A DNA stretch of 64,000 bases from Catajapyx aquilonaris (Eukaryota): positions 124,001-188,000 of the forward strand of contig KZ538193.1 of NCBI GenBank assembly GCA_000934665.2, in the 5' to 3' direction. The notes below the pieces were generated by a model. That model made no database searches and was not told where the DNA came from. It was given only the letters and a program-made list of their open reading frames with translations. Position 1 is the stretch's first letter; each line of letters opens with the position of its first letter. The translations under genes were made by a program, and so were the position numbers. Positions 7,029-36,900 of the stretch are shown here, piece after piece.

Positions 7029-7259
7029 NNNNNNNNNNNNNNNNNNNNNNNNNNNNNNNNNNNNNNNNNNNNNNNNNNNNNNNNNNNNNNNNNNNNNNNN
7101 NNNNNNNNNNNNNNNNNNNNNNNNNNNNNNNNNNNNNNNNNNNNNNNNNNNNNNNNNNNNNNNNNNNNNNNNNNNNNNNNNNNNNNNNNNNNNNNNNNNN
7201 NNNNNNNNNNNNNNNNNNNNNNNNNNNNNNNNNNNNNNNNNNNNNNNNNNNNNNNNNNN
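7029..7259. other. Assembly gap flanked by poly-C
   Basis: Run of N bases. Confidence 1.
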
Positions 7260-14544: not shown

Positions 14545-16960
14545 CCACGTTGAGATGGTGGTGGTCACAAACTCATTATTATGGTGACGCTGGCAAATGG
14601 TCACATTTTTTTCCATATGAAAAAAAAATAAATTTAAATGTGTGTGTATGTGTGTGTACAGGACGATTCCTGGCAGGCCACCAGGGGGCAACAAAAAAAA
14701 CGTTGTGAATTTCGGAAAATGTCATTTTGTGATTTGATGCCCCTTTGCAGATCACAGGAACCGTCTGGAGACACAAGAGTTGGTTCGTCGCCACTACGCA
14801 TCCTTCTCACCTTACATGTAGCTTGCATTAAAAAAAAGAAACAACAAATTTATTATTATTAATGATTAATAATGTTTAAGGGCACTTGTACATACAGTAC
14901 AGCACTATGTGTGTCACATTATGTGTATCTCCTCTCCATGGTGTACAGTACAACTAATGTTTCATTTTGGGTATAGTGGACAAGCCTTTTTTTTCTAATT
15001 TCCGAAAAGTGGCGACAAGAACATTGTAACTTCCCCCCCAAACCCTCCTTTTTTGGAATTGTTAAAAACTGTAGCGGAAAAAAAGTGCACGGTTGGTAGG
15101 TTTTGTATTCTATGTAATTCTGTCCCCCCCTCGACCCTTACTCCCCTCTCCAATTGTACGAGTGGAATTTGTGCATGTCATGACTTCTTTCCACCTGAAA
15201 TGTCTGGGTTGTGCCACTTCATGTACATAGTCGGATAAAAACAGCCGGACTCACTTCTTGTCCAAAATTCGGCTAAAGACACAGCCACTTTTTATCGGGA
15301 TCCGGAATTTTTAATTATTTGGAGTAAAAAAATTATTTCAGTTCCTGTGTAGCGATATAGAATAGAATGGACAAAAAAAACCAATAAAAATGTGTAAATA
15401 ATGTAGCTCCTTTCAGCACACCTGTTCCATTTACTTTCTGACATGAATTGAATAACTACTCGCAGCTTTATTATTTGATCCAGCAAATAAAGCCACGAGT
15501 AGGCCAGACCACATGTGTAATAATATCTGTTTATTTAATGAATTTGGTTTCATTTCGATTCTTCCATACAGCATACTTGTACCGTAATGTCTATATTAAT
15601 CGCCAATTTTATCACTAATCAGTTTTAGTAAAATCTGGAAGTAATTGGCAAAATACCTGAAAGTGCTGGAAAATTTCGGGCATTTTCGATTCTTTAATTT
15701 TCAAATTTGTGATAGTTTTTGTCTCCTTTGTTTTGCATTTCCTTTTGAAAAAAATTGGCCGATTATATTGCTCAAATGCATCCGGGGTTGAAGTGATTTT
15801 TTTTTTTTTTTTGCTTCCGCATGATAGTAACTTGTTAATAAAAATGAACCTCGTATCTTCAATTTCTTCAGCTAATGTAGGCATATCAGTGCAATGATGT
15901 CACAATTTTGTCCATAATTTTTTTGCTAAATTATTTGTCTTTCTCAACACAAGGAAGCAGCTGAGTTTTCAATATTGTGTCCCTGATAACACGCACAGTA
16001 CATTATAAAACCTATTCCGCATGATTCATCTGCGGTTTTCCCTGGAAACGTCTGCTCCTGAAGATTTTGACAAGATTTCTCCCTCCCGGTTTCCAGCTAG
16101 GAATAAGGAGGGACATAATAATAAGGAGGGAAAAGGAGTGGGCGATAACAATCAGCGTAACAGCAAGGGGCAAATGCGACTGGGAAAGGGGACGTCCCCG
16201 AGAGACAATGCAGCCGAGTCCCTAAGGAACTCCGCGGGAGAACCCAGCCTGCGACTGACACTCAACCGCCTCTCTTTATTTTTCACAGGAAAAAAAAGCG
16301 GGGAGAATCCCTCCCACCCACCCACAAATTCCATCTCCAAACGGGAGAGACTGATTTTTTTGCAAAACTTTTTCTTAAAAAAAAAGAGCCGGCAAGACGT
16401 TGACTCTTATGAGACTGCGTTGATTAGTCGACGTCTTGACAAAACCCTCGGGGCAACAATTATTAAGATTGCCTTGACAACCTGTTTAGGTGCACACCGC
16501 CATTGTTGAGCCTAGTTTCAGGCTATCTGTGGCTACGGCTGGGCAACATTTTACATCCGGTTGGGTCCAGAGCTTACGAACGGTGAGTTTAGTTAATTGA
16601 CTGTTAGACAGCATTGTATAGATCAAAAGCGGTTGTTAATTAGATATGGAATTTGTCACCAAACTCAATAAGACATTTCCTGCTCTTGTTAATTGTTGAC
16701 GAATTGATCAATTGACCAGTACCCCGCTCAAAAGTCCCCACCAGACACCCTAAGCCGCGATCTGATTGGTGGAGCAGAGGCCACCAATCAGATCGGTGGG
16801 TACAGTGCGGTACAAAAGAAATGCTCCTTTGAAACCCTACCGTGCAGAGGTCGCAATAACTATCTAGGTGGCCTATATAGCCTACCTTTTTTATTTTTTA
16901 GAACTAGGATGTGGGTACTGTAGAGCACTGTTTAAAACTATCTGATGCACAGTTGGCAGA

Positions 16961-17671
16961 ATGGATGACCCCAATTTGCCGTCCACTTCCACCGTGGATC
17001 CCTCGACTGCAGGCCAGCAGTCCAAACAGCCAAAAGACCTGACCGTCGATGACTTGCTGAAAATGACGGCCGATGACGTGGAACAAATGTCCGGAGAAGA
17101 ACTGGACGAGCTGACCGACAGAGCCTTGACACTCCTGAAGCATGACCTGAAGGACATGTCAGATGCTGAGATCAGAGATCTGGCGGACAAGTTGAGCAGT
17201 CTTCCTGAAGACGACGAAGACCTGAAGGCCCTTCGTGAACTTGACCTGAGTGATGACGGCGAGGACTTCACCGCCGCAGAGCTGCAGGACATTACATTAC
17301 ACATGAAGGACCTCTCGATGGAAGACGTGAACGAGATTTCCGACGACGAGATGAGGGAACTCGCCATCAGCTGGAAGAAACTACACCGCATCCCTGGTGC
17401 TGGTGGCCCCGTCGCTCTTGAGACGGAACAGGCTTCAGAATCCTCAGAATCCGACCTGGAGGAAGAATCTCCGGTAAAGTGCATATATTGTGACATTACA
17501 GTAACGAGACTTATTACTATCCCGATAATTGCATTCTCATGCGGCAGCTTGATGATCCGGAACTGGATCCCGTGAATTACCTGGCCGGAGTAGTCGAACG
17601 TGCGCAAGAAATAAAAGAGCGGTCTGCAGGCCTGAAGGTATATACGGGATGGCTGCAAACACCGATATACG

Positions 17672-17752
<81 letters not shown>

Positions 17753-18080
17753 TGGTTTTTCAGGCTCTGAGTGGACACACTCAAGTTTCATCCCTGTCTG
17801 ATGCGGGAACGAGCAGCAGCTCCGGCCTGAAAGACTTGAAGTTGCATTATTTGGTACGTAGCTACACTTTGTCAAAATATGATGTCGTGAAAATGAGCCC
17901 ATTGATTAATCACACCCACACGGGAAAAATGTATTGTTGGAAGTAATTGTCTGCAGCTATTGTTTTCTTATTCAGACTGTTGCAAATGAGACGGACAATA
18001 AGGTCTCCGATGTCCATCAGCAGGAGGTGAAGTCAGCTGAAACAAAGGTGGACCTGACGCCCACCAAGGACAAGGAGTGA
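16961..18080 (+). CDS. Uncharacterised acidic protein, 4 exons (16961-17473, 17548-17637, 17764-17853, 17976-18080), about 265 aa
   Basis: All three introns are GT-AG and phase 0, and the joined frame is open to TGA at 18078-18080. GC-rich coding-like composition. AATAAA at 18124-18129. No family recognised. Confidence 0.7.
17672..17750. repeat. (TAT)n microsatellite in intron 2 of the acidic gene
   Basis: Read directly from the sequence. Confidence 0.98.
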
Positions 18081-18194: not shown

Positions 18195-21100
18195 ATGGCG
18201 GCGCACATGGTTTGCTTGATATCAGAATTTGGCCAACTCCCTGTGCTTGCGAGCTGGCATGGACACTGGTAGTAGGCCACGTGTTCAGTTTGTTCACTTA
18301 ATACGTGAGCACATGGCTCTCTCGCTGTGCTTGTAATATTAATTGTAATTAGGTCGTAAAACCGTTAATGAGCGTGGATATGGAGGCGGCTGAAGGTGGA
18401 GAGGAGGGCGGCCCAGGGGCCAAGCGGAAGAGGCAGGAGGAGGTGAGTTACAAGCCGGAATATGTGGCTCGTGTACTGAATCTTTAAAGTGTAAAATCAA
18501 AGGGTAAAAAAAAGGGTAAATCTTCAAAGGGTACATATTAATTTAATTGTAATTATTAATATTAATTGAAGGCTGGAATGGAGACGAGTTCGGCCAAGCT
18601 GAGCAGACAGGAGCTGTACCGTGCCCCGACGGGAGAGGAGCTGAGCCAGCTGAAGGAGACGGAGCGTCTTTTCCACTCCAACATCTTCAGGATGCAGGCG
18701 GAGGAGATGCTGAAGGAGATGCGGATGAAGGAGCAGCATTCGAGGGAGATCCGGGAGTGGGTCGGGAAGCTGAGGGAGCATCTGACCGGGTTGGACGACA
18801 CGGAGAAGACGGAGATGTCGGACAGGAGCTGGCTGGAGGGGCTGGGAGTCGCAGTACCCATGGACGTATCGGGAGAAGGATGGTTCAAGTTTGCACGGCC
18901 CATTGTCTCGATTGTTGGTTCGCATGCGTGCGGGACTTGCTTGGGTCGTGACATGGTTGTGGACGTACGGCTTGAAATTCCGAAGAAGGTGTTCCAGTCG
19001 AGTGACAGCTGGGATCGGCGATATCACATGAAAAGAGCGATGTATCTGGCGTACGTGGCGTCCAAGCTGGGCGATTGCGACTTTGTGGGTCAAGTATGTT
19101 ACCGCCATTTACATGGCGATGTGCTGAAGCCGGTACTGGAAGTTAAGCCACCCCAAGGCCGGATCACGTACCAGTTGTTGCCGACTATGCATTCGGATGT
19201 GTTCAAGCCAAGCAAGTTCAACCCCAGCAAATCAAACTTGCACGGAACTGACATGAGTCCGCATTACAATGCGTCAGTACTTGTTGATCTCACAATGGCG
19301 GCACAGGAAGAGGTGCGGGGCAGCCTGTACGGCGATGGTCGTACACTACAAGAAGCGGTTCTTCTTCTCAAGGTGTGGTTGCGCCAACGTGGATTGAAGG
19401 TTGGGTTCGGAGGCGTGTCCGGATTCATAATCTCGATGTACGTCGTGTACTTGGTTAGAACGAGGAAAGTCAACTCGTTAATGAGCAATTATCAGGTGGT
19501 ACGTAACGTGTGGACCAACATTGCCGCAGCAGACTGGACGACTAAGGGTATAACTTTATGCCACAACAAAGACGGGCAAGACGTCGCCGAGTTTCACAAA
19601 CACTACGAGGTCGTATTTGTCGATTCGTCTGGATGCTTGAATCTGTGTGCAACTATGAGTCGGTGCACCTTCATGCGATTGAAGCACGAAGCGACTAGAG
19701 CTGTGGCTATTTTGGACGATGCGAACGCCGATGGGTTTGAAGCACTCTTCATGAATCAGGTTCAGTTCTCACGCACCTTTGATCACATTGTGCGCATCCG
19801 CATTGATGACGACAATATTGAGGCAGCCATTCTGGAACATGAGTCAGCCGCTTTGAACAATTCTGGTAATGCAGACGCATCTGCAACCAAAAATGTGTTG
19901 AAACCACGACCGGAAACGATACTGGACTGTGCCCATTCTCGACCTGGCATAGTTCAGGCTGTTCAGAACATCCTGACTAAAGGATTGGGCGACCGCGTGC
20001 ACCTTTTGGATGTCAACTTGACGCCAAGTCGGGCCTGGAGCATCCAAGAAAAGTTCCCTCGCAAAGTGGATCCCATTACGTTCGGACTCATCCTAGATCC
20101 GGATGCTTCCACACGTATCCTTGATCGTGGACCGCCTCCAGATGACCCTACGTCTCGCCAGTTCCGTGCATTTTGGGGCACCAAGTCGGAGCTGCGTCGG
20201 TTTCGGGATGGATCCGTGTGTGAGGCTGTGGTTTGGGAAGCATCCAACGCATCCCAGAAACGGATGGTGTGTCGCCAGATTGTCCTCTACCTGCTTGAAA
20301 CCAATGGAATTTCCCCGGAGCTGGTTCAGTACGTGGGTAACCAGATAGAACCCGTATTAACGCTTGTACGAGAAGGTTACGGGACTGGAGAAGAGGAGCG
20401 AGTGTCTGCGGTGAGAGCGTACGAATCAATTGCAAGTGAACTGAGGGAAATGAAGGGTCTTCCTCTGGGAATCAGCAGTGTGCAGGGCGTTTCGGAAGTA
20501 ATCCGTGGCACTCAGGTGTTCCCACCGCTCGAACGGCTCAAGCTTCGGGAGAAGAGTAAGGACATTGGGATGCGAGACATGTGCCAGGTGTTCACAAGCA
20601 TCGGGAAGACCGTACCTCCATGGATGGAACCAATTGAGCGTAAGTTTCAAGCGACTGAAGAATTTTCATATGTCTAATGCTTACCTTTCATTCCAGTTCA
20701 TCTAACCCTTGAGGGGAGCAGCAAATGGCCGGATGATCCCGAAGCAATTCGACGTGTGAAAGCCGCCTTTTATCTGGAGATGTCCAAGCATTTCCGCACA
20801 AGACATGTTGCTGCCCATGCGCACCAAGACCACCTGGATGTCCTTCGAGGCGGATACATTTTCCGTATTCGAGTTGTGTACCATCGGGAAGGGATCCTGC
20901 TGCGGACTCGAACTAATCCGGACGGCTCCAAAGAAGTGGTTCCTATTCATCAAGAGCCAAAGGCACTGAAACTGGAGCTGGAAACAGTGTTGAAGCCACG
21001 GCTCGGTGCCGCACTTCAAGGAGTCGGACAGCGATTTGGAGCATTCGGACCGTCCTGTGCACTGGCAAAACGTTGGATCCATGCTCATCTGTTGGGTGGA

Positions 21101-22180
21101 CAGGTGTCCGACCAGTGCATTGAACTGATGATGGCTCGGATCTTCTTGCATCCAGCGCCGTACGTGGCACCATTCCAGCCGCAGGTGGCTCTAATGAGGC
21201 TTTTCTGCCTGATTGCCTTCACTGACTGGAACGTGACGCCAATAGTCGTCAACTGGAATGACGATCTGTCAAGTAAGTAGCGTGAACTGTGTTAACAAAC
21301 CGTGCTAACGTTTCTAATTGTTTGCAGAGGAAGACTTAAGTGGCGTGCACAACCATTTTGTGGAGAACAGATCCACCTTGCCGCCTATGTTCATCGCAAC
21401 TCCGATGGACCGCACCGACTCTATCTGGACCCGTGACATGCCCAAAGTGATACTGGTCCGGCTCGTTCAACTGGCCCTGAAGTCGCTTGGAGTACTGGAG
21501 TCGCAACTGGAATCGTTCAACAGCGAGACTGACTTCAAACAGATCTTCCGTACTCCGCTTGATCCTTACGATGTCGTGATCAACCTTAGACCATACTGGC
21601 TGCCCAGGAGGTTCCAGGGGATTGATGCGACTAAAGGAGAGTATGAAGGGAAAGGCTGGAGGGAACCGGAAAAAGGAGAGACGCAGGTGATGCCTCCCAT
21701 TGAGTTCGATCCCGTCCAGTGCTACCTCAGAGAGTTGCGGGCCGGCTTTGGGCATCTGGCGCTATTTTTTCATGACAAGTTTGGCGGGAAGATCATCGGA
21801 GTCGTGTGGAAACCAAATGCTTGCAAGCAGGCAGAGTTTAAGGTCAGTGAAGTGTACGAACTAGTACCCAAAAAAGTATACAGTGAAATCTCAATATAAT
21901 GCTTTTCAAGGGACCAGAAAAAAAAGGGGCGTTAAAACCGGAAAAGAGTTATATAGATGTGGGAGCGTTATATCGAGGTTTTACTGTATTTAAATTCCCC
22001 AAATACATAAAATATAATTTATTTCAGGTAAATGAGATGCAAGCAAAGATGATCACATCTGTTAACAACAAGAAGGCGAAGGCTGTCCCCAATTACGAAG
22101 CAATTATCCAGGATTTCCGCATCATCGGAGATAGTCTTGTTCGTACAATTGACGTTCACTCGGAGCGGTGGACAGTCTGA
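18195..22180 (+). CDS. NOL6: Nucleolar protein 6 (Nrap/Utp22), exons 18195-18209, 18353-18442, 18572-20639, 20697-21272, 21328-21842, 22028-22180, about 1138 aa
   Basis: Nrap motifs LYRAPTGEEL..LKETERLFHSN, RYHMKRAMYLA, LLKVWLRQR, FRAFWGTKSELRRFRDGSVCEAVVW, SKWPDDPEAIRRVKAAF and FDPVQCYLREL. GT-AG introns are phase-consistent. The 15-bp first exon is the least certain. Confidence 0.95.
21881..21986. mobile_element. Tigger/pogo-like MITE in the last NOL6 intron
   Basis: cagtgaaatctcaatataa...ttatatcgaggttttactg with TA on both sides. The paralogous intron in the pseudogene (about 30213-30235) shows the empty site aaaaaagtata|tttgaattccc. Confidence 0.85.
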
Positions 22181-22258
22181 TTAAATTTTTTATTCGACTG
22201 GATTTATTTCAATTGCAGCTTCCTCTTCCATCTTTTTAATATCCGCATGCGAATAGCC
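22181..22258 (-). pseudogene. AMACR: Remnant of the AMACR 3' coding end
   Basis: ttaaattttttattcgactggatttatttcaattgcagcttcctcttccatctttttaatatccg aligns with 30409-30474 of intact AMACR, and similarity decays after that. Confidence 0.88.
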
Positions 22259-22849
22259 TGTGTGGTGTTGCGGAATGGTGCCGCAGATGTCTCGAGTGTC
22301 ATTGCGGGTGCTCAGGTTAGAATCTGGGGGCTAAATTATGAATGGCTGGGGATTGCAACAGATGAGTGTTGACAATCGCAGTCGTCAGTTGGCAGGGAGA
22401 CATGCACAACAATGGTGCCTGCCAAATGCTTTTTATACAGCTGAAGGTGACAAGCGATGACATCGCTGAGCAATAATATCGGATGTTCAATTGATTTTCG
22501 CCTCAAACAATATTGGTTACTCAGCAAAGTATTTGATCGTCTAATCACTCGCATGTAAATGCAGCTTGAGTTGCATTTTGTCACAGTTATGTGCTACGTC
22601 ACTCACATTGGAAGTAGACTTTCAATAGGTGGATCACGACCAGCAAAGAGATCACTGAGACCAGGATTTTATGTCTCAATCATGTCCATCTGATGTACTA
22701 TATATTGATTTCAAAGAAAAATCGTCTTTTCGAGTGATAACGGTGCCTAATGTGTACGCTTGATTAGTTTTTCCATTCATTAGTGTTTTGACCAGATGTG
22801 TCACTGATAGCTATACATTTTATAGCTTTATTTTTCTGGTGTGTTCAAG

Positions 22850-23119
22850 ACTATTCAGATGTTTGGACGTGAGGGGGAGAGTTCCCTGTTCCAGCTGCTC
22901 CAGATGGACCGACTGGAAGGCCAGAGAGACCACATCCACCAGCTCCTTGCCGGTTACGACACAACATTTGCTGGTGCTCTTGTTCGGAACCTTCGCCACC
23001 AATGCAGAGAGGGCCAACACAGGGATGACTTCCGAAGCGCTGGGTGTGTCCGTGGCACCATCTTCCTTCCACAGCTGCGTGTCAGACGGAAAGAGAGCCA
23101 AGGTGGAGGATGTCATGCG
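22850..23119 (+). pseudogene. Isolated RhoGAP-domain exon fragment (C-terminal half of the domain), frameshifted
   Basis: Two frames join as ...SSLFQLLQMDRLEGQRDHIHQL / SSLPVTTQHLLVLLFGTF...TGMTSEALGVSVAPS..HSCVSDGK, which matches the RhoGAP M-T-x-x-x-L-x-x-x-x-x-P motif. Flanked by ag| and |gtcagc. No other exons found nearby. Confidence 0.7.
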
Positions 23120-24161
23120 GTCAGCAGTGCGTAAGACCATTGCCGCACGTGGGGATGAAGGCCAGTTATTAATTGTAGAGCAGGGAGACGGAGTGGCGGT
23201 GCAGTAATGTAATGTATGCAGCAAATTCATCAAAGAACTTGTGCATAAAGTGAAGCGGAAGTCCTCTGCCACCCACCCACTACAGTATGAATCAGATTAA
23301 TTTCTCCTTAACAATACTGGCTACACATTTCGTCATTTCTGATTGATAATAATCCGCTGAATTAAAAAGCGGCATTGCTTGTGACCAATCTATTCACACC
23401 TTTTTCTTACATGGAATTGCTGAGATGGCTGCGAGGAATGTTATCCTTATTGACATAAATATTTATCCAAATATCTTGCAGCATAATTTCTTCATGTTAA
23501 GCAGCTAACACTTACAAAACTATCACACTTCATTAATAAACCAACACCACTGCAACTATTGCAACGAGACGGGTAACGAGTCTTAACATTTTAAATCATT
23601 ACCTACTAAAATGGAGGCTTGGATAAAAATAATAGTGAATCTATCCTCTCATAATACACTAATGCCCAATAATATTAATACACTTTTACATTAATATTGT
23701 ACTGTAACAGCTGTACGCTCGGCCCAGGGTTTTGGCATTGATATCCCAGTGTGCCATTCATTTGCCTTGGGATTAAAATGGACAACTTCAGAAGTAAATC
23801 CCTGCTTCCCCTTATACTCGTCTCCCACAATGACAAACAGGCAGCCATTAGCAGCTGCCACTGCTGGGGTTGAGACCGCCCGCATCATAGGAGTGACTTT
23901 TGTCCACTCATTTCTCTCAAAAGAGTATCTGTCCACCTCACGTGAAGATACAGTATATCCCTGGTCATTCTCTGTTTCACCTCCAACAATGTACAAGTGG
24001 TCATCTAGCAGTACTAGCACAGCAACTCCCATGGAGTAGCGTGGTTTAAACCAGATGGTTCATTCCACTCTTTTGTTTGTGGATTGTAAGACATAAACAG
24101 TGATTTATTGAAAGACATCAAGTATTGATACGCACCATCACAAAAATCATAGGTCCCACCT

Positions 24162-24242
24162 ATCATATAAATCAGACCAGCATAAGTAACTACACGCATG
24201 CCGCATGCGTGTAGTTACTTATGCTGGTCTGATTTATATGAT
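24162..24242. repeat. Perfect palindrome, 40-bp arms, 1-bp spacer
   Basis: atcatataaatcagaccagcataagtaactacacgcatgc c gcatgcgtgtagttacttatgctggtctgatttatatgat. Confidence 0.97.
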
Positions 24243-24324
24243 TGACCACATGCCATTCAGCACTCTTGGGATCAAACTTTTCAATGCTTCCAAGGACAGT
24301 ACGATTCACATCTATCCCACCGAG

Positions 24325-24496
24325 TGCATATAAGCAGTCATTGAATTCTAGCAGACCAAAATTTCGCCAAATTATTATTTAATACATATTACTCTTACAA
24401 CACACGTGAGGAAACTTCCGGGTTAAGGGTGAGGGCAGACTGGAAGTTGGAAGGCGAAATTTTGGTCTGCTAGAATATAATGACTGCTTATATGCA
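24325..24496. repeat. Inverted repeat, 44-bp arms, 84-bp spacer, 2 mismatches
   Basis: 24325-24368 matches the reverse complement of 24453-24496. Confidence 0.93.
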
Positions 24497-25018
24497 TTTA
24501 TGTATCCAACACAGTTTTATAATCATCAGTGCTGAGACCACCTATCATTCAGGTAAACAGTGGATCCAATGGCAGCAATGCCAGGGTCCTGTCTAACGTC
24601 TGGAGTAACATGCCGGTCATCACTTGACCTCACACCCTCTGACTCGTGCCAACTGTCATAACACGTGTTTAAATAGCGCACAGCAGTTTTGGATAACTTT
24701 CTGCTTCCATAATATGTGTCATTCACCCGCCCTGCAGCAATATATTATGACAGTTGTCATCCAAGATATTTCTTCTACCACTGATTCTCCCATATCCCCA
24801 AACTTACTCTTCAAAATGCTTTTCAGGGCAGCATCATTAATTGCGCATGGCATCACATGGTACTCTCACATGGTATCAGTGATAATTTTACACACTTGAA
24901 CAGTTCATGAACATAAGTCCGCCTCTCCTCTACTGACTTTTCAATCCAGGCAATGACAGCTCGCATGACTTTTTCCTCCCTTTGGGAGCTTATTTTAGTG
25001 CTCATCAAGTACTGTGGC

Positions 25019-25106
25019 ACATCCTCCTTTGACAGGTCCATAAACGCGTCTGAAGTAGTAACGTTACTACTTCAGACGCGTTTATGGACCTGTCAAAGGA
25101 GGATGT
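25019..25106. repeat. Perfect 88-bp palindrome, no spacer
   Basis: acatcctcctttgacaggtccataaacgcgtctgaagtagtaac|gttactacttcagacgcgtttatggacctgtcaaaggaggatgt. Confidence 0.97.
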
Positions 25107-25584
25107 TAACAGCATCCAAGGTGTCCTCAATAAATATGGATGCCAAATTTGCCAACTTGGTGTAGTTGCATGCAGTGGCCAGTCTGTGCACATCAGCGTT
25201 GGACTTGTCCAGATGTTGGCTCATCAACTTGTTGCACAAAACTTGAGCTCTGGGTATCTGCAGCATGTTGGCTGCCGCGGCCACCTCCTCCACATTACCT
25301 TGCCACAACGTCTCCATGCGTCCGGTACACAGGCAATCAATCAGCATATTCAGGGCTGCAGACGACACCCCCTTGATGGGAACCTGAGACTGCCCCTCTT
25401 CCGCCAGCCCCCCAGAAAACATGGCCTTGAAGTGGAGAGCAGATGCTGCAAGTACAGCTCGGTGAGCCTTAACAGAAGTCCCATCCTCACATGTCAGCTC
25501 GACGTCACAGAAATGGAAGAGTGCCGGAAGTCATGCAGTTGGCGCAATATGTCCAACTGATGAGAGTGAGGGACATTGCAATTA

Positions 25585-25806
25585 GCGTGGGTATGGAGGC
25601 GGCTGAAGGTGGAGAGGAGGAGGGCGGCGGCAAGGGCGGCCCTGGGGCCATGCGGAAGAGGCAGGAGGAGGTGAGTTGCAAGTCGGAATGTGGCTCAAGC
25701 CTACATGAAATTTTGGATGATTAATTTATGTAATTAATATTAATTGCAGGATGGAATTGAGACGAGTTCACAACGTCGCCGAGTTTCACAAACACTACCA
25801 GGTCGT
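25585..25806 (+). pseudogene. NOL6: 5' fragment of a duplicated NOL6 (exon 2, intron 2, start of exon 3, joined to an internal exon 3 patch)
   Basis: Matches about 18372-18470, about 18540-18591 and about 19581-19615 of intact NOL6, e.g. atggaggcggctgaaggtggagaggag, gcggaagaggcaggaggaggtgagtt and acgtcgccgagtttcacaaacactac. Confidence 0.88.
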
Positions 25807-26551
25807 TATTCGTGAAGCCCCTCTCGAAGGCAAGATCAGCTTAGAAAATCTGGGCGACCAACGGTCGACACTAGGTCGACTGCCTCGGTTAGAGGCCGAC
25901 CGTCGTGCAATCATCATCACAATCAACTCGTTCGGCACCGAACTTACTAAGGATGGCAGGGCAAAGTTGTATCCACGCTGACGACGGCTAAACCCAGATG
26001 GGCGGCTGGCAGCCTTAGCTCGAGCAGATGACTACGAGCAGGTTAAAGCAGTGGCTGCTGAGTATTACGCTGTAAGTTCAATCCCACCAAAAACCTTTCT
26101 GTAAAAAAAGGCCAAGTTCTCCTGACTGCTTGGCCGTCAAAAGTGGTGAGATCTGAAATGCGGCCAAGTTCAACGTCGTTGTCAATTACTGGCATTCTCA
26201 ACTTCCTCAACCTAAACCACAAACTTTGTTTTTCCAGGTCGACCTTAAGTTTAATCATCAAAAAATTTTAATCGAATTTCTCTTGGTGTAACTTGATGTT
26301 TGTTTGACAAGCTCTACCAGCGTACCAAATTTCAGCATCCTAGGACCACTGGAAGTTCCCTTTAATTTTGATGATCAGTCAGTCAGTCACTCATTTGGCC
26401 CATACGTTTGTGTACAGTGGAAAAACAATATGTGTAGATAATGTTAAAATCGCATTGTTGTCATTTCAGTTCCTTGATGAGATCTAAAGAGTTAATAATT
26501 ATAATGTGCAGATGTCCAGTTCATTAACATCCTTTTAATATTGTCTTGATG

Positions 26552-27364
26552 TCAATCAAGTATTTCAGGGTTTTCCTCCCAGAAGGAGCCATCGATTATG
26601 TCGCAGTGGCGCGAGAGAATTGTTGAGCGAGCTTTTCCTCCTCCGGGTGGAAGAACTTTCTTGCGGAACAGCACCGTCCCCTTGCGGTAAATCTCGGGCT
26701 CATTGTTGTAGTTGCAGCCAAACTTGGAGAATAGTATGTCGTGCTGATCCTTTTTACCGGTGCCACGGAGACGTTTCTCAGCCTGATGGTGTAAGAGTTG
26801 TTATTATTATGATACGTTTCAGCCATCAATCGCACTTACTCCTGCATGTGTTAACCCTCCTTGATTCACCAGTGCCCAGAACACAGTGTTGTATTGGTTG
26901 CTTATGTGGCAATCAACCTGCCGCCAGCTCAGATAATCCCTAATATCCGTATCAGTAGGGTACTCGACCACTCGTGCGTCAAACCCAGGCGGATACTGGA
27001 GCTTCACGTTGTCACCAAATTCAGAGTCCCAATGGAAAACGAAGGCGGAAGCGAACTGACTGCACAGATTGGTTTCAATTTTGGCTCGTCTCCGCTTGTA
27101 CAACTGAGCTTTCCGACTGAGTACGAAGCTGTACTCATCGCTCTGGCCGTATGCGATGCACACTTCTCTGTATTCCATCATTACTGTTTGGGCCGCCCGG
27201 GTCATGAGCTGCAAGCATCGTTGGTCGTTGGGTTTGTCCAAGCCATGCTGCTCGGAGAATCGATGGAAAGCACGGCCATCCACACGTACCGCCAGGAAGC
27301 AACCAGGGAGGCAGCGGGAATTGTTCTCGTACTCACGCACGCGCGCAAATACGCTATTTGCCAT
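26552..27364 (-). CDS. THG1L: tRNA(His) guanylyltransferase / Thg1-family 3'-5' polymerase, exons 27364-26840 and 26782-26552, 251 aa
   Basis: Motifs VRVDGRAFHRFS, KPND, AYGQSDEYSF, FDARVV, DYLSWRQVDCH, NYNNEPEIYRKGT and HCDII..FWEENPEIL. A 57-bp GTAAGT...CAG phase 0 intron restores the full frame. An acceptor upstream of the ATG suggests a 5'UTR intron. Confidence 0.93.
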
Positions 27365-28631
27365 GGTGCGTGACACAGACAGATGTTTCTGAAAATGAGC
27401 AAAAATGTAATTAACTGACATTGAGCATTTCTTCCAACATTTTCATACTGATTATTCTCGATTAATGTATTTTTGATGCCCCGTGTTAGAGCCTTTGCAG
27501 GTTGATTTTAAACCACTGTATGGTGCTGCACATGTACTTATCGCAATAATATTTACAATTGCAGCAATGTAATTTTGCAGACAGGTAGTATGATGCAACA
27601 TTGAATTTAACTCCGGTATCGTCCAAAATTCTTAATATAAAGCGATGCAAAATCGCGCAATTGTTCAGCACGAATACGTACGCAATTAATCGTCCAGTAT
27701 TTCTTTTTTTTGCAAAATATGTTTTTTCGCAATAATTTCCAGACAGAAACACGCGTGACATTTTCACGTGGAGGACGCCATCTTGGATTTATAGCAATAA
27801 TGCGATCACGTCGCGTTTGAAATTAGCCGTTATTTGGCACATTGCAAACGGGGCAAATTATACCTAATTAAATTAATGTAATCACGTTGCCACACACCGT
27901 GGTCATACTTTGGTTCATGTAGTTAAACTGCGACAGTGACGTCGTGCAATATATCACAGTTTTGGTACAGAAAAGTGATTGTCAATTCACTGCTATTGTA
28001 AAAAAAAGCGCTTAGTGAGCAGCAGTTAGTCGGTTTAATAATTATAATTAACTATTCTTAACATTATTAATTTGCCATCCACGTGCATTAAAACTAATTA
28101 CTTTGCACCTAATTGTGATAATCTGACGCTCAGAGTGCCATGTTTGGTGCAAATGAAGGACATGTTTGGTGCAAATGAAGGACATTTTTGCTGCTTACTG
28201 CTCTCGTTTCTGGGTAATTAATTTAATTTAACCACATTTGACACTTAAAATTGGTAACTGGATAATTACACATGAGCCCAAGAGTGTATACACAACGATA
28301 CGCAATAATGGAAAGTATTTTTCCTGCCTTAATAATTAGCCATCGTACTTTGCTGACTTGTGCTGCTTATTGTGTCTAGTTAATTAATTATTTTAATTAT
28401 CTTACTCTTAATGAGCCATTAGGTCGTGTCCAGTTGTGTATTAATTTATTAACTATCTTTACTCTCCATGGGCCGTTCAGCTGTGTCCAGTTAAGTGTTC
28501 ATTAAATTGCCTTATTCTCTCGGTGCGTCATTGTGCCAATTTCTTCAACCTTTTAAATGACAGTTAAAGTTAACTACAGTTAATCAACTGAAACTGCATT
28601 TTATTATTTTTATGATTCTATTTTTATTACA

Positions 28632-30408
28632 GGCGATAGTCGTACTCTACGAGAAGCTGGTAGTTCTTCTGAAGGTGTGGTTGCGTCAACGTGGATTGAA
28701 GGTTGGGTTTGGATGCGTGTCCGGATTCATAATCTCAATGTACGTCATGTACTTGGTTAGAACAAGGAAAGTCAACTCGTTAATGAGCAATTATCAGGTG
28801 GTACGTAACGTGTGGACCAACATTGCCGCAGCAGACTGGACGACTCGGGGCATAACTTGACGCCACGACGACAAAGACGGACCAGACGTCGCCGGGTTTC
28901 ACAAACACTACCAGGTCGCGTTTGTCGATTCATCTGGATGTTTGAATCTATGCGCAAATATGAGTCGCTGCACCTTCATGCAATTGAAGGACAAAGCGAC
29001 TAGAGTGGCGGGATGATCCCGAAGCAGTTGGACGCGTGAAAGCCGCCTTTTATCTGGAGAAAACCAAGCATTTCCGTAGTGGACATGTTGCTGCCCAGAC
29101 GCATCAAGACCACCTGGAGGTTCTTCCTGGTGGATACATTTTCCATATTTGGGTTGCGTACCATCGGGAATAGATCCTGCTGCGGACTCGAACTACGCTG
29201 GACAGCTCCAAAGAAGTTGTTCCCATCCTTCAAGAGCCAAAGGTGCTGAAACTTGAGTAAGAAACAGTGCTGAAACCAAGGCTCGGTGCCGCACTTCAAG
29301 GAGTTGGCCAGCGTTTTGGGGCTTTCGGACCGTCCTGTGCATTGGCCAAATGTTGGATCCAAGCACATCTTTTCGGAGGGCATGTGTCTGACCAGTACGT
29401 CAAATTGCTGATAGCTCGGACCTTCTTGCACCCAGCATCGTACGTGTCCCCATTCCAGCCGCAGATGACTCTAATGAGGCTTCTCTGCCTGATTGCCGTC
29501 ACTGACAGGAATGTGACGCCACGAGTCGCCAACTGGAATGACGATCTGTCAAGTAAGTACCCAGTTGGAAGTATTGTTCTCATGCTAACATTTTAATTGT
29601 TTGCAGAGGAAGACTGCAGCGGTGTGCGCAACCATTTTGTGGAGAACAGATCCACCTATCCACCGATGTTCATCGCAACTCCGGTGGACCACACCGAGTC
29701 TATATCTGGACCCATGACATGCCCAAAGTGATTCTGGTCCGGCTCATTCAACTGGCCCTGAAGTTGCTTGGAGTACTGGAGTCACAGCTGGAAATGTTCA
29801 ACTGCAAGACCAACTTCAAACAGATCTTCCGCACTCTTCTTGATCCGTAGGATGTTGTAATCAACCTTAGACCATACTGGCTGCCCAGGAGGTTCCAGGG
29901 GATCGATGCGACTAAGGGAGAGTATGAAGGGAAAGGCTGGAGGGAACCGGAAAAAGGAGAGACGCAGGTGATGCCTCCCGTCAAGTTCGATCCCGTCCAG
30001 TGCTACCTCAGAGAGTTGCGGGCCGGCTTTGGGCATCTGGCACTATTTTTTCATGACAAGTTTGGCGGGAAGATCATCGGAGTTGTGTGGAAACAAAATG
30101 TTTGCAAGGAGGCAGAGTTTAAGGTCAGTATTTTACTGTACAATTCCTGTCGTATGTATCTGCAAATAATCATAATACAATGGGAACAAGTGATGTGTAT
30201 GAACTAGTGCCCAAAAAAGTATATTTGAATTCCCAGTACATGTAACAATATAAATCATTTCAGGTAAACGAGATGCAAGCGAAGATGATCTCATCTTTTA
30301 ACAACAAGAAGGCGAAGGCTGTCCCCAATTACGATCCAGGATTTCCGCATCATTGGAGATAGTCTTGTTCGTACAATTGACATTCACTTGGAATGGTGGA
30401 CAGTCTGA
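28632..30408 (+). pseudogene. NOL6: Unprocessed NOL6 pseudogene (3' part)
   Basis: Colinear with about 19330-19700 and about 20728-22180 of intact NOL6, with a deletion of about 1 kb between them. Introns 4 and 5 are retained. Contains in-frame stops (e.g. TAG at 29171 and 29848) and frameshifts. Confidence 0.95.
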
Positions 30409-31548
30409 TTAAATTTTTGATTCAACCGGATTTATTTCAATTGCGCCTTCCTCTTCCATCTTTTTAATATCCGAAGCTGAGTAGCCCATCTCCAGCAGGA
30501 TCTCCCGAGTGTGCTGTCCAACTTGCAATGGTGTTGATGGAATTTTAGCTTCGCCTGGGGTTGCACTCAGTTGCGGTGCTGGCACTGGTTCGTACTGGTC
30601 ATGCACACCCTTGACAAAAGCATTTCGGTGCTTTGAAAGAGGGTGTTCGGCCGCTTCGTTCGTCGTAAGCACAGGCTGAACGCATGCGTCTGTATCTCCG
30701 AAAATCTTGGTCCATTCATCTCGTGTCTTTTCCTTAAATCTCGCTGCCACCTTCGCCTTCTCCGCAGCAAAGTCGGCCATTTGCGGCATCTCATCCTCAG
30801 TAAATCCCAGCCCGGCCAGAAACTGGCTGTAAAACTGCGGTTCTAATGCGCCAACCGACATGTGCCCGCCGTCCTTAGTTTCATACACATCATAAAAGTG
30901 TGTACCAGTATCCAAGAAGTTATGACCTCTCGGAGCAGCGAACAGGTAATCGCCCTGGTGCGCAAACAGGAAGCTGCTGACATACGCCGCTCCTTCGACC
31001 ATTGACGAATCTACGACCTGCCCTTGACCTGATTTGGTCCGGTGGAAAAGGGCTAAGAGTATGCCCAAAGCGCATGTTAACCCACCGCCAGCAAAATCAG
31101 CCAGGAGGTTAACAGGTGGTGTTGGATTAGATCCGGCGCGACCAAGCAGCGAGAGTACGCCTGACATCGCAACGTAATTAATATCATGGCCTGCCCGATC
31201 TTTGAGCGGTCCGGTCTGTCCGAACCCAGTCAGTCTTGCGTATACCAGCCGAGGATTCTTGGCCATCAGTTCGCGAGGTCCGAGCCCCAGCCGTTCCATA
31301 ACCCCAGGTCGGAATGGCTCGATCAGCACGTCCGCATTGGCGCACAGCTTCGATACGACCGAGAGTCCAGCAGGCGACTTGAGGTTGACAGCGACGGACC
31401 GCTTCCCTCGGTTCAGGCGGTCCTGGTTGCCATGAGCCACCCTGTCCACACGCAGCACAGACGCACCAAAGTCGCTCAGGATCATCCCGCAGAAAGGGGC
31501 CGGAGCCAGCCCAGCCATCTCCACAACCTTTACGCCCTTCAGCGCCAT
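30409..31548 (-). CDS. AMACR: Alpha-methylacyl-CoA racemase (CaiB/BaiF CoA-transferase family III), single coding exon, 379 aa
   Basis: MALKGVKVVEMAGLAPAPFCGMILSDFGA, LIEPFRPGVMERLGLGP, AGHDINY (catalytic His) and NLLADFAGGG (catalytic Asp). C-terminal SKI is a PTS1-like signal. Acceptor ttgcag just upstream of the ATG indicates a 5'UTR intron. Confidence 0.96.
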   Translation of the reverse strand: MALKGVKVVEMAGLAPAPFCGMILSDFGASVLRVDRVAHGNQDRLNRGKRSVAVNLKSPAGLSVVSKLCANADVLIEPFRPGVMERLGLGPRELMAKNPRLVYARLTGFGQTGPLKDRAGHDINYVAMSGVLSLLGRAGSNPTPPVNLLADFAGGGLTCALGILLALFHRTKSGQGQVVDSSMVEGAAYVSSFLFAHQGDYLFAAPRGHNFLDTGTHFYDVYETKDGGHMSVGALEPQFYSQFLAGLGFTEDEMPQMADFAAEKAKVAARFKEKTRDEWTKIFGDTDACVQPVLTTNEAAEHPLSKHRNAFVKGVHDQYEPVPAPQLSATPGEAKIPSTPLQVGQHTREILLEMGYSASDIKKMEEEGAIEINPVESKI

Positions 31549-31699
31549 CACCTGCAATGTCAAGCGAAAATTAGCCACAAGATAACGTAATTTCAGGCGT
31601 TTCAAGTTGTGCAAAATTTAACTTCAAAAACTAATGAATCTTACGTACAGTATATGAGGAAAAGTTTGTCTGTTATTACCACTAACCACATGGCAATGC

Positions 31700-32309
31700 C
31701 AAATCCCTGATTTTTATGCTGTACTTTCAGGAAGCCGGCTCTTCACACGGTTGCCATGGAATATATCGTAGCAACCGATTGCCATGGAAGTACAAAAACA
31801 CCAAACTTTCTCCTATGAATGATCTCATAGCAACTGGTTGCAATGGTCAAACAAACCAATCAGCAGATTATTAGGCAGCAGCTTGCCCATTATGAATGAA
31901 CTCATAGCAACTGGTTGCAACAGTATAACCCATGGACAACTTGGGGCCATGGACTGAATACATAAAGTACATAAAGATTAATAATTAATAATGATTAAAC
32001 GTACAGAGAAATGTGCGTTAAACTGTGCTCTTTGTCCAGTAGTCGTACTGCAAGTATGTGAGTGCAACTTGTTCAGAAAATATCTCTCGCGCGATAAGGC
32101 CGGCAAGGACATGGTGAGGAAACATGTCCCTATAAATTTGTTCCGCAATATTTTAGAATTATATCGTAAATAATTTCAAATTTTCATAAATCAAAATAAA
32201 ATAATTGTGACCCTGATTGGTGTCGCCGACTGGTGGCCAGCCGTGGAAGTCTTCCTTGAGTTGGCCACGAGATGTCTCTAGCGTCGCATCGCAATAGGCG
32301 GCATCCAAG
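31700..32309. promoter_or_regulatory. Probable bidirectional promoter shared by AMACR and RBM8A, with clustered RFX X-box-like half sites and a CCAAT box
   Basis: The two genes are head-to-head with start codons about 760 bp apart. Contains gttgccatgg (31750), tagcaac (x3) and a 30-bp direct repeat at 31814-31843 and 31891-31920. Confidence 0.6.
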
Positions 32310-34355
32310 ATGGCGGACGTTCTGGACATCGAGAATGCGGAGGAGTTCGAGGTAGACGACGAAGGAGACCGTGAGTAGGGCTTCTTGGAGGGGAGGAGAG
32401 CACTGGACGGATTCTGCGGAGTCTGGAGCACAGTTTGAGCCCACATTTGTGGAGGAGGGCCGTTTGCCTGATGCGTGTTCCTCCATTCATTCCGCAGAGG
32501 GCATAGCCCGGCTGAAGGAGAAGGCGAAGAAGAGGAAGGGAAGAGGGTTCGGAGCGGACAACCCGACCAGGGACGAGGTCAGGGAGTACGAGTCCGTCGA
32601 TCCGGATGGGGACGGGAAGGAACCAGGACCGCAGCGGTGTAAGTATACGTGAAGGACAAAAGCAGGGGGAAATGCAAGTCGCAGGCTTAGTTGCTCCATA
32701 CATTCCCAATAGAGTGTGTCGGTACCATAAATGTCTCCTGATAGACTGGAAGAATCATCATATCTCAAGTCTAGTTTAGAAAACTTACATTTCTAACAGA
32801 TCTTGCAAGAAAGTCGCTCCCGATATGAAAAATTGAATGTTGGTTTTTAAATATGTTCTCCGAGTAATGAAAACGTGGCTTTAAAATTGAGAATTAGCCA
32901 TTTTTGTGCATTTCAAATAGCCACAGAAGTAGCCAGGGACATGCATTAATTTTAATTCTAGCGTGTATGGCAATTTCAGCTGATGGCCCATTTTTCTACG
33001 TACATATTCCTCACAGATAATAATTCTAGTATAATTAAAAATGGACAGAAGAGTGATTGCCCATTGTAAGGCCCCATTTACATTGTCGACTGTCTGCAGC
33101 AGGCATTCCTTCTTAAACACAAATTAGGGCAGGCTTTATTTCCTTTCGACTGGGAGGCTCTCCACTCAGGATGTCTGATTGATGGAGCGCCTGCGCACTG
33201 CAAACAGTCGCTTCGACTAAGTCATCAATGTAAACAGGGCCCAATACCCTGTTTGAGTTGTTGCTACATTATTCACATGTCCATGATTTGATGTTTCAGT
33301 GACCAATAGATGAGGGCCATACTTACAGTATATTGATTTAGAGTTAATTTTTGTGCAACAAATACAGGTCGGCAGAAAGTCACACATTATCGATAAAAAC
33401 CTCCTGGAACCACTGGTGTGGCTGCCTCTCCAATCTCTTCAAGAACCATTTTTGGAGGTGCGGCGTACCCACTCCCGCACAACTGCTCGCAGTTCAACAA
33501 TGTCCTTAAAATAGCTTCTGTGCAGGGGGTTTTTCACGGCTCTGAACAGGTGAAAGTCACTGGGGGCCAGGTCAGGGAGTACGATTGGTGTGGAAACACT
33601 TGGAACCCAGACTTGGCAATGGCAGCCATTATTTCTCCTGGCTCGTGTGGGACCACGTGTTGTCATGATGCAAGAACACACCTTTCACCCATTTCCCTGT
33701 CTCTCTTTTCTGGGTGGCACACCACAAGCTAAGGAGGGTCACCATGTATGTGGGGCTGTTGATGGTAGTGGCTGGTTCCAGCCAGTCAATGAGAATGATG
33801 CCCTCCATGTCCCAATACACCATGGCCATGCACTGATAGGATGCCATGTCGAGGACATTGTTGAACTGCGAGCAGTTGTCTGGGATTGGGTGTCTGGCAC
33901 ACCTCCAAAATGCAGTTCCTGGAGGGCCTGGAGAGGCTTCCACACCCATGGTGCCAGTGTATTTGGCTCCAGGAGGATTCTAATGAGTAATGATGTGTGC
34001 CTGTCGGCCAACTTGTGTAGGCCCTCTATTTGTAGAAAAAAAATATTGTAAATCAGTACATACAACTGGAAAAATTGGCCATGATCTATATAGTCAGTAG
34101 CAGAGGGCGACACAGTGGCGGAGTGGTTAGCGCCACAGCCTTCCACCTCTAAGGTCCTGAGTTCGATCCCCGGGTCGGATGGAGGATACTTATATGGATA
34201 GGGTTTTGATGGGTTCTCTCCGTGCTTGCGTGAGTTTTTTCGGGGTTCTCCCGTTTCCTCCCGCAATCAAAATCCATCACAGTGCAGGGAATTATTAAAG
34301 ACGGTTGACGAAAAGATGATCCCCTAAGATGCCCAAGAAGGCCTATCACAGGGTA

Positions 34356-34438
<83 letters not shown>

Positions 34439-36900
34439 TATTTACACATGATTAGCCTATTCATCACTACTTCTCACGGAACCCCTGGCTATTGGTTGTG
34501 GAACCCCAGTTGAGAAACCTTGGTCTCTACCATCATCATAAGAATAAAAATACCAATTCTGGCACATTTCTAGCACCTGTGCTCATTTCAAATTCGAATA
34601 TTTCAACTCTTGAGGCCAGGTTTACACTATGCAAGGAACAGATATTTAAGGGCCTGGCCACACTTGGCGGAATCTCCGCGACAAAAATTCTGTCGTGGTT
34701 TGATTTTGCAACGTTTTGTCACGCAGAATTTCCATTGACCGGGCTGCCACCCTGCGGCCCTTTCAGCTACCAATCCCCCTGGTTTCCATGCCATCGAACC
34801 CGCTTTTTCTGTCGGTAGTGTAGCATTCGCCCGGCGAAATCAATGTAATGCAGTGGGACTATTGTCCCCGATGGAAAACTGAGCCAATTTTTTCAGCTGT
34901 GTCTTCGGCTGGTGCTCGACGGAACGACGGAAAAACCATTGTGTCTCGTCCCGACGGAATCCCATTTCCTACCATGTGTTTGATTTTTTTGAGCAGACTG
35001 CAACGGAAATTCCGTCCCGGAAATTCCGCCTGGTGTGGCAAGGGCCTAAGAAAAAACTGAGCTTTGCTTTTCCATCTAGCATTAGAAGGGTCATTCAAAT
35101 GAAAAAGAGCCAAGGCCACAGAAAATATACGAATGGGTTTACTCTGGGCATCGCCTCCCTAAAACGAAGGTTGCGGCACTGGAGTGTTATGATGCCCTGA
35201 CAGGGGCGCTTCCATCATGTGACAGAATGGTTGTGTGCCTTGGGCCTTTGTTTAGGACCCCCTGTCGACCGTCCAGTCAGATAAGGACGCAAGGAACATT
35301 GAGCGGCTTGCAGCTGTCTGTTTTTGAACCACTGAAGGTGTCATGAGTATAGAAATCCATCGCCTCATGAGTACCATGAATGAAAACTGCATGTCTTCGT
35401 CACATGTTAACGCCTGGAGGAAGTGGTTTGCATGTCCTAGCCTGGAATAACCTGGAAATGACGACAGCCCCCTCATGGAATGGCTTAGTCCAAGCTACAG
35501 CACGTAGCAAAGACGTGCCATTTTCATACTTGTTACTTATACTGCGATGAATTTCAGTATTCCTGACGCCTCAAAACCGGATTACCACAAGGTGCTCTAT
35601 GTTTCTTGCTTCCATATATGACTGGATAGTCTATTTGATAGGGGTCCTGAACAGAGGCACACTACATATTGGGTCACATCATAGAATCACCACCTGTCAG
35701 TGTGTCATAACACTACACTGGTTCCACCTTCATCTTGTGTTGAAGATGCCATAAGAAACCCTCAGCAATTTACTAAAAATAACCTGGTTCATTTTCATTG
35801 GTATGACCCTTGTATTAGGAGGAACTTTCAGCAAAATTTGTCATTCCTTACAACAAAATCAATCCTGGAAGAAATCCATTATTTTTGGGGACACCATTCT
35901 TTTGTGTGTGTGTGTGTGTGCAGTGCATGACAATTAATTATATCTGAAGCTGAAAACAGTTATTTTTGGGTAGGATACGTTAATGAGGTTTGGAGGTCGC
36001 CATCATGGTGAAATTGGGAAGTCACTATGAGCAACATATTTTGATTGGATTTTTTTTTATTCAAGGGGTGAAAAATGCTGATGTCGGCAAAATGTGTTTG
36101 GGGCTCATTTTTGATACCCTTTGCGTTTAGAAGATGCAATTTTTTGTTAGTGCAACAATGAAAAAAGCCACAGAGAAACTGCCTTACTTTGCATTGGAAA
36201 TATTTCTGTAGTGTATTTTAAAAACTACTGATGGAGCATATTTCCTTGCAGTCCAGCTACTGTAAGGACATGTATGTGGAAATAGGGCACTCATAAACAT
36301 GCATGTGAAACTACATTGCTGGCTTACTGTATGGTGGATGATGAAACCAAAGTTTATGAAGCTGCGGAAAGTCCATTATCATCGATCATTTAATAGCGAA
36401 TTTTGCAAGCAGATTTTATTGAGGCAACAAAACATTTTGAAATTTATATAATGCAGGTGACAGGGGATTAGATACTGGAATTCTTTTTAATTGTCTTTTC
36501 CGGCTCTTGCATCATGATTTCTTTTTACCTTTCAGCGGTGGAGGGTTGGATCCTGTTTGTGACAGGGGTGAACGAAGAGGCACAGGAGGATGATATCCAT
36601 GATAAGTTTCTGGAGTATGGAGACATAAAGAACCTGCACCTGAACCTTGACCGAAGGACTGGGTTCCTGAAGGGTTATGCTCTGGTGGAGTATGAGACCT
36701 TCACGGAGGCAGAGGCGGCCAGGGGAGCCCTCAACGGAACTGACATCCTTGGGCAGACCATATCCGTTGACTGGAGCTTTGTCCAGGGACCCAAAAAGTG
36801 AGTTCATATTTTGTAAGAGTCGATCTCTTCATTTTAAAGATACCAATAATTGCTTTTGTGATTCAGGGTCAAGAGCAGCCGGAGGAGTCGGAGGCGATGA
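32310..36900 (+). CDS. RBM8A: RNA-binding protein 8A (Y14/tsunagi, exon junction complex), exons 32310-32370, 32498-32638, 36536-36797, 36867-36900, 165 aa
   Basis: [39 protein letters not shown]...[18 protein letters not shown]...[18 protein letters not shown]...[11 protein letters not shown]. All splice sites are canonical and phase-consistent. Confidence 0.97.
33328..34062 (-). mobile_element. Degenerate mariner transposon derivative in RBM8A intron 2
   Basis: Transposase remnants [29 protein letters not shown] and [11 protein letters not shown]. Long imperfect inverted arms at about 33328-33507 and about 33852-34062. Confidence 0.85.
34105..34438 (+). mobile_element. tRNA-derived SINE with a V/Meta-like central domain and a (CAT)n tail
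   Basis: A box TGGCGGAGTGG (34116), B box GAGTTCGATCC (34159), central ctccgtgcttgcgtgagttttttcggggttctcccgtttcctcccgca, and a 3' (CAT)n microsatellite tail. Confidence 0.85.
34650..35046. mobile_element. PIF/Harbinger-type MITE
   Basis: Imperfect TIRs gggcctggccacacttggcggaat / attccgcctggtgtggcaagggcc, with TAA on both sides. Confidence 0.7.

Follow-up and report, generated by a model that had tools for sequence, protein, structure and literature searches.

Unprocessed (duplicated) pseudogenes of segmental duplication and convergent gene pairs that overlap at their 3' ends are both well known. In the convergent pair ACAT2-TCP1, one gene uses a poly(A) signal on its partner's non-coding strand, and the parts of that study considered here describe the loss of overlap mainly through lost splice variants or poly(A) signals, not through duplication and decay (Makalowska et al. 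2007, PMC2151771). Here we describe a locus of Catajapyx aquilonaris at which a convergent pair, NOL6 and AMACR, was also caught by a duplication. The locus lies in a stretch of 64,000 nucleotides (GenBank assembly GCA_000934665.2, contig KZ538193.1, positions 124,001 to 188,000 of the forward strand; hereafter the window), in which the stop codon of NOL6 directly touches that of AMACR on the opposite strand, and this junction occurs twice. The best explanation, which we consider probable, is a duplication of NOL6 together with the tail of AMACR, followed by decay of the NOL6 copy that lies beside AMACR.

The locus shares with unprocessed pseudogenes a copy made at the DNA level, retained introns and a junction without a poly(A) tail, together with disabling stops, frameshifts and deletions, relaxed constraint on the dead copy and residual transcription. 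Unlike the usual case, the dead copy here lies beside the original neighbour, AMACR, while the survivor has truncated flanks, and the pseudogene is split by another expressed gene, THG1. As in pairs of the ACAT2-TCP1 type, insofar as the cited sections describe them, the genes lie on opposite strands and each has its 3'-end signals in the sequence of the other, whereas here the coding sequences abut with zero spacer and the whole 3' untranslated region (UTR) of each must lie in a coding exon of its partner. The locus also resembles duplication-degeneration-complementation, or reciprocal gene loss, in that a different member of the ancestral pair stays intact in each copy, although only NOL6 is shown to have been duplicated whole and the complementary loss of AMACR is undemonstrated. 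Our literature search found no paper on NOL6-AMACR adjacency and none on a duplicated tail-to-tail pair of this kind.

The two junctions and the repeated unit

The following features make up the locus:

18380..22180, plus strand: functional NOL6 (Nrap/Utp22 family), copy 1, with exons 18380-18442, 18572-20639, 20697-21272, 21328-21842 and 22028-22180
22178..22183: junction 1, NOL6 TGA (22178-22180) followed by TTA (22181-22183), the reverse complement of the AMACR TAA
22181..22258, minus strand: AMACR 3' stub, comprising the stop and the 25 codons before it, in which TCA>TAA in the third-last codon creates a premature stop
25580..25806, plus strand: NOL6 pseudogene piece psi-a, consisting of exon 1 with its ATG and 15 extra bp, intron 1 and ~26 nt from the start of exon 2, fused to a 34-nt segment that corresponds to 19581-19614
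28632..30408, plus strand: NOL6 pseudogene piece psi-b, corresponding to 19331-19700 and 20726-22180 of copy 1, with introns 3 and 4 kept
30406..30411: junction 2, pseudogene TGA (30406-30408) followed by TTA (30409-30411), the reverse complement of the TAA of the intact AMACR
30409..31548, minus strand: intact AMACR with a family III CoA-transferase fold, a single-exon coding sequence of 379 amino acids ending in -SKI

Both junctions were found where the first-pass annotation of this DNA had placed them, and the junction string GGTGGACAGTCTGATTAAATTTTT is present at 22170-22190 and 30398-30418. Self-comparison with blastn, akin to the dot-plot of 18-32 kb proposed in that annotation, recovered a long direct repeat of ~87% identity that contains both junctions, ruling out the chance occurrence of a hexamer. 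Its blocks, with their identities, and the short matches at the 5' end are as follows:

19331-19700 and 28632-29005: repeat block, 90%
20726-21848 and 29006-30129: repeat block, 87.6%
21987-22258 and 30222-30486: repeat block, 86.5% (E 9e-90)
18367-18470 and 25580-25696: short 5' match
18537-18591 and 25720-25769: short 5' match
19581-19614 and 25773-25806: short 5' match

Homology starts 13 bp upstream of the NOL6 ATG (18367/25580) and ends 78 bp beyond the NOL6 stop (22258/30486), delimiting a repeated unit of ~3.9 kb (18367-22258) that comprises NOL6 and the last 25 codons and stop of AMACR. At both junctions the two genes lie on opposite strands with their 3' ends facing and zero spacer between TGA and TTA. 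Each stop codon occupies its conserved position, so an extended or truncated reading frame does not account for the abutment, and because the junction is common to both copies, the abutting stops are older than the duplication, in agreement with the ancestral state that had been suggested.

NOL6 copy 1 has a coding sequence of 3375 nt for 1124 amino acids, in which the sole stop is the terminal one, and four introns, all of them GT..AG; introns 2, 3 and 4 of the model were taken from splice joints in run X5 (described below), and intron 1 was placed from the sequence alone. Pfam matches to Nrap domains D1-D6 in plus-strand open reading frames (ORFs) at 18566-21899 identify the gene as NOL6/Utp22, and its closest database protein is 39% identical (33 proteins had E <= 0.001 among 8000 candidates scored). 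The C-terminus SERWTV aligned to the ends of seven homologues, one mammalian sequence likewise ending in SERWTV. The description of junction 1 as an intact NOL6 followed by about 80 bp of AMACR is therefore borne out, by an uninterrupted reading frame and a stub of 78 bp.

The intact AMACR is one open frame of 379 codons, in which CoA_transf_3 was matched over 366/366 profile positions (E 4.8e-83; Pfam, ORF 30412-31617), and it has a 5'UTR intron at about 31550-32002. Named animal AMACRs are 55-61% identical to it, and the best homologues 60%. Homologue C-termini read SKL in 56 and AKL in 29 of 120 sequences, and the -SKI end of the intact AMACR, a putative peroxisome-targeting signal (PTS1), aligns there. 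Full-length fold and C-terminus together mark the gene as an orthologue of alpha-methylacyl-CoA racemase. The possibility that the single-exon AMACR is a retrogene was rejected, since neither a copied 3'UTR nor a poly(A) tail could fit at the junction, and since NOL6 and THG1 also have few introns.

The stub is identical to 30409-30486 at 68 of its 78 bases, and its translation reads GYSHADIKKMEEEAAIEINPVE, stop, KI, stop, against GYSASDIKKMEEEGAIEINPVESKI and stop in the intact gene. Similarity past 22258 is at chance level, the best local score observed being reached by 66 of 300 shuffles, and a longer stub extending to 22327, hinted at by tblastn, was rejected on this ground. Across the 64-kb window, tblastn found no further AMACR remnant beyond the intact gene and the stub, and a six-frame profile search built on 119 AMACR sequences matched the intact gene alone.

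Decay and residual transcription of the second NOL6 copy

Compared with copy 1, psi-b carries four in-frame stops (28858, 29171, 29258 and 29848) and exon indels of +1 (28658), +3 (28865), +2 (29698) and -8 (30333), three of them frameshifting. Copy 2 as a whole is without 18592-19330 (739 bp) and 19701-20725 (1025 bp) of copy 1, so that ~1.8 kb is gone, and the 34-nt segment 19581-19614 occurs in psi-a and psi-b alike. The contrast drawn by the first-pass annotation at junction 2, an open AMACR frame beside a NOL6 pseudogene, is thus confirmed by the stops, frameshifts and gaps. Introns 1, 3 and 4 align in copy 2 with GT..AG kept, and intron 2 falls in the deleted part; the retained introns indicate that the duplication took place at the DNA level, as had been proposed. 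A processed pseudogene or retrocopy was ruled out by the presence of introns and by the AMACR stop directly after the NOL6 stop in both copies. With introns kept, disabling lesions and relaxed constraint, copy 2 is an unprocessed pseudogene.

Over 520 aligned codons, the proportions of synonymous (pS) and non-synonymous (pN) differences between the copies were 0.204 and 0.069, giving a ratio of non-synonymous to synonymous divergence (Ka/Ks) of 0.31. At 81 scorable amino-acid differences, copy 1 was nearer to 27 homologues at 58 sites and the pseudogene at 15, with 8 ties (p 4e-7), and well-conserved columns were split 25 to 3 in the same direction, copy 1 being nearer; the 58-to-15 split indicates that most changes fell on the pseudogene lineage. 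Neutral evolution of copy 2 from the duplication onwards would be expected to give a Ka/Ks of 0.5 or more, and the lower value suggests, as a rough estimate, that both copies worked for a period or that gene conversion took place. Divergence was distributed over the exons as follows:

Exon 2 part: 8.9%
Exon 3: 14.6%
Exon 4, 5' half: 11.6%
Exon 4, 3' half: 5.0%
Exon 5: 6.2%

In the 3' half of exon 4, 8 changes are synonymous and 5 non-synonymous (p 0.002 against neutrality), a conservation that may reflect either conversion or residual function. The stub differs at 10 of 78 sites, about the neutral rate for a single branch given a pS of 0.20 between the copies, and constraint on the stub is therefore not demonstrated. 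The earlier view that each gene has retained its partner's tail as its own 3' end is thus not supported on the stub side.

A global alignment (intron 4 59% and intron 3 65% identical) had pointed to a very old duplication, a candidate that was rejected because the intron 4 figure is an alignment artefact of copy-specific insertions: in local alignment, 32 of 35 positions of intron 4 are identical in the first block and 54 of 75 overall. The insertion in copy 1, bounded approximately by local alignment, is as follows:

21909..22010, approximate bounds: insertion of ~100 nt in intron 4 of copy 1 only, flanked by two AATATAAT..TTTCA motifs and containing a high-copy repeat

In the DNA runs its depth is 300-1250x, with loose ends at 21957-21995, and the region (21897-22028) looks like a small insertion resembling a short interspersed nuclear element or a miniature inverted-repeat transposable element, with a target-site duplication.

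Transcription was assessed from run X5, which belongs to another study, is of unrecorded kind and was judged RNA-like from its spliced contigs. Its joints in NOL6 copy 1 lie at 20639/20697, 21272/21328 and 21840/22026, and AMACR has a joint at 31549/32003 and a contig over 30298-31549. A separate contig joins 30121/30262 with GT..AG on the plus strand, which corresponds to the last intron of the pseudogene (about 30124-30263), still spliced. The junction contigs of copy 1 and copy 2 are distinct, with depths of 10.3 and 20, and both end in a 35-nt stretch that is identical between the copies (22063-22097 = 30299-30333), as k-mer contigs should. Transcription towards AMACR thus continues in the 3' part of the pseudogene. 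The contig 30298-31549 runs on for 111 nt beyond the AMACR stop, within the pseudogene exon, which the spliced contig of plus-strand type reaches as well, these being unstranded contigs without poly(A) ends.

The hexamer ATTAAA (TGATTAAA) spans both junctions, at 22180-22185 and 30408-30413, and is made up of the final A of TGA, the TTA and two further bases. Within ~300 nt downstream of the NOL6 stop it is the sole one of eight common poly(A) hexamers, and whichever site is used, the NOL6 3' end must lie within sequence derived from AMACR. Past the AMACR stop, the pseudogene exon contains no AATAAA or ATTAAA, the nearest downstream variants being AATATA at 186 nt and AGTAAA at 274 nt.

Genes and repeats between and around the copies

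Two further genes are interspersed with the copies:

23691..25579, minus strand: KLHL-like gene (BTB and Kelch), between the stub and psi-a (Pfam BTB 1.1e-21, Kelch_1 6.3e-12, minus-strand ORFs 23691-25530)
26552..27364, minus strand: coding sequence of THG1 (tRNA-His guanylyltransferase), between psi-a and psi-b (Pfam Thg1 1e-46 and Thg1C 9.6e-18, minus-strand ORF 26819-27442)

THG1 has introns at 26782-26838 and 27389-27681 and is expressed and spliced, as seen from the X5 joints 26781/26839 and 27388/27682. NOL6 (four introns, one exon of 2068 nt), THG1 (one intron in the coding sequence) and AMACR (none in the coding sequence) are intron-poor, with introns of 55-57 nt among them. For the KLHL-like gene, no upstream ATG was found before the frame runs antisense into psi-a (25494-25700, minus strand), the frame changes near 25500-25530, between ...QLHDFRHS and FHFCDVELT, and no expression was seen in X5; the gene may be either a pseudogene or one with undetected 5' exons. 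No second KLHL or THG1 copy was found in the window.

The KLHL-like gene contains two perfect palindromes, at 24162-24242 (40-nt arms, 1 nt between) and 25019-25106 (44-nt arms, 0 nt between), and at 24325-24496 a 95% palindromic pair 84 nt apart. DNA contigs jump 24583-24793, and depth is approximately doubled across 24534-25495. Either these features are genuine fold-back rearrangements in a dead gene, or the assembly is wrong locally.

A very high-copy repeat is located at 26079-26300, immediately downstream of the 3' end of THG1; its summed contig depth is ~12,000-27,000x, against ~30x for single-copy sequence. A remnant of a mariner/Tc1-type transposase is present at 33404-33979 (Pfam Transposase_1, E 2.5e-9), with an inverted pair at 33404-33506/33852-33957 that is 79% identical. 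Long trinucleotide microsatellites occur at 17672-17753, 34328-34451 and 60025-60112; those at 17.7 kb and 60 kb match each other, and the one at ~34.3 kb appears as poly-Asp or poly-His in the ORF listings. Nine of ten ORFs scanned against Pfam had a family match, the exception being 16946-17575; the ORFs at 22764-23296, which lie after the stub and before the KLHL-like gene, matched no Pfam family, and among 33 further long ORFs of the window the transposase remnant was the sole match. Rfam and tRNA scans of the window returned nothing.

Origin of the arrangement

In the history that we propose, NOL6 (plus strand) and AMACR (minus strand) would have been convergent in the ancestor, with touching stops. 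A DNA-level duplication would then have copied a 3.9-kb unit, 18367-22258, holding the whole of NOL6 and the last 26 AMACR codons, stop included; AMACR itself was most likely never duplicated whole, the breakpoint presumably falling inside it. Both NOL6 copies were probably functional for some time, after which the AMACR-adjacent copy would have decayed through stops, frameshifts, two large gaps and its splitting around the THG1 gene, leaving the other copy as the sole working NOL6. This gene would use the junction ATTAAA, in which case its transcript would end inside the dead AMACR stub, and AMACR transcripts would still run into the last exon of the pseudogene, itself transcribed and spliced towards AMACR. 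The AMACR-adjacent locus is presumably the parental position, now dead, and the surviving copy is the one whose flanks are truncated; were copy 2 the parent, NOL6 would in effect have moved. The boundaries of the unit and the absence of further AMACR sequence favour a breakpoint inside AMACR over duplication of the whole pair with later deletion, and further rearrangement is indicated by the KLHL-like and THG1 genes in between and by the duplicated 34-nt segment.

An assembly artefact, in which the two junctions would represent alleles, haplotigs or one locus joined chimerically, finds some encouragement in the oddities of the KLHL-like region, with its perfect palindromes at 25019-25106 and 24162-24242 and contigs skipping 24583-24793. 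Against it, the copies are only ~87% identical and differ in lesions and flanks, copy-specific variants lie on separate RNA contigs, and the window has Ns only at 5033 and 7029-7259, with no N run between the copies. DNA read support was assessed as contigs of three runs (X1, X3 and X4). In X1, copy 1 was covered at about 30-43x and copy 2 at 19-40x, in line with the flanks (about 35x) and not halved, and depth was similar throughout except for the high-copy repeats near 21957-21995, 22488-22524 and 26079-26300; among the longest contigs, which alone were listed, a DNA contig at 30305-32200 spans junction 2 and none spans junction 1. An artefact is thus extremely improbable, and a haplotig or collapse is excluded for practical purposes. 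Duplication of the whole pair with reciprocal loss, in which copy 1 would have lost AMACR by deletion except for 78 bp and copy 2 its NOL6 by decay, is the history that the first-pass annotation had favoured. The end state of one intact gene per copy fits it, and kilobase-scale deletions do occur here, since 18592-19330 and 19701-20725 are absent from copy 2. However, it requires an extra deletion that starts exactly where homology ends, and nothing of the AMACR body, 5'UTR exon or upstream region is seen near copy 1, though repeat sequence of the same age is 85-90% identical; at ~13-20% divergence, a second AMACR would still be visible unless cleanly deleted. We therefore regard reciprocal loss as unlikely: copy 1 does keep NOL6 and copy 2 does adjoin the only intact AMACR, but a loss of AMACR from copy 1 is undemonstrated.

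An adaptive reading, in which the duplication was retained for freeing NOL6 and AMACR from sense-antisense interference and the partner tails are conserved only as terminators, could appeal to the ATTAAA kept at both junctions and to the 3' 430 nt of the pseudogene, its least diverged part (5-6%), which is still transcribed. Yet the 10 differences in the 78-bp stub are about the neutral rate, the low-divergence tract is conserved in the style of coding sequence (8 synonymous to 5 non-synonymous changes) and not of a UTR, convergent transcription still reaches the AMACR 3' end, and neutral duplication and decay account for everything, making this reading highly doubtful. The 'escape from overlap' previously read into the locus is not supported, as the same transcription suggests that antisense overlap persists on the AMACR side. 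It is likewise improbable that the duplication resolved a zero-spacer antisense conflict, with a dead piece of AMACR now terminating NOL6 and a dead exon of NOL6 terminating AMACR, both kept for that role only, and with the spliced pseudogene transcript regulating AMACR in antisense. The data are accounted for by neutral duplication and subsequent decay, and a selected escape from overlap is not demonstrated.

Several observations weigh against the simple form of the history preferred here, duplication of NOL6 with the AMACR tail. The tandem duplication originally postulated is not supported, for the working and the dead copy are in direct orientation but lie 8 kb apart and are not adjacent: 22259-25579 (3.3 kb, with the KLHL-like gene) separates the units, and 25807-28631, with THG1, lies inside copy 2, between overlapping pseudogene pieces. 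The spacing from the stub to psi-a is unexplained by any simple tandem or insertion model, and the presence of the 34-nt segment in both pseudogene pieces requires more than one event or a complex rearrangement. A once-complete AMACR copy may also have been cleanly deleted. The uneven divergence of the pseudogene, from 5% to 14.6%, leaves room for gene conversion, which could distort the Ka/Ks reasoning. As to the data, X1, X3 and X4 come from one sample and may be the assembly's own source, and the RNA evidence consists of unstranded contigs of one run, in which strand follows from splice-site orientation only and no poly(A) site was seen.

The event is of an ordinary kind, a duplication of known type followed by decay, with no new element or mechanism. 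The locus provides a clean example of a local DNA duplication separating two genes with common 3' ends, and indicates that the survivor can be the copy that bears a mere fragment of its former neighbour. If the terminator and antisense reading were true, it would represent duplication-degeneration-complementation acting on shared 3'-end signals, and not on coding or enhancer functions. The locus is a possible teaching and test case for the inheritance of terminators in duplications, and if relatives keep a single abutting pair, it could help to test the expression cost of convergent overlap.

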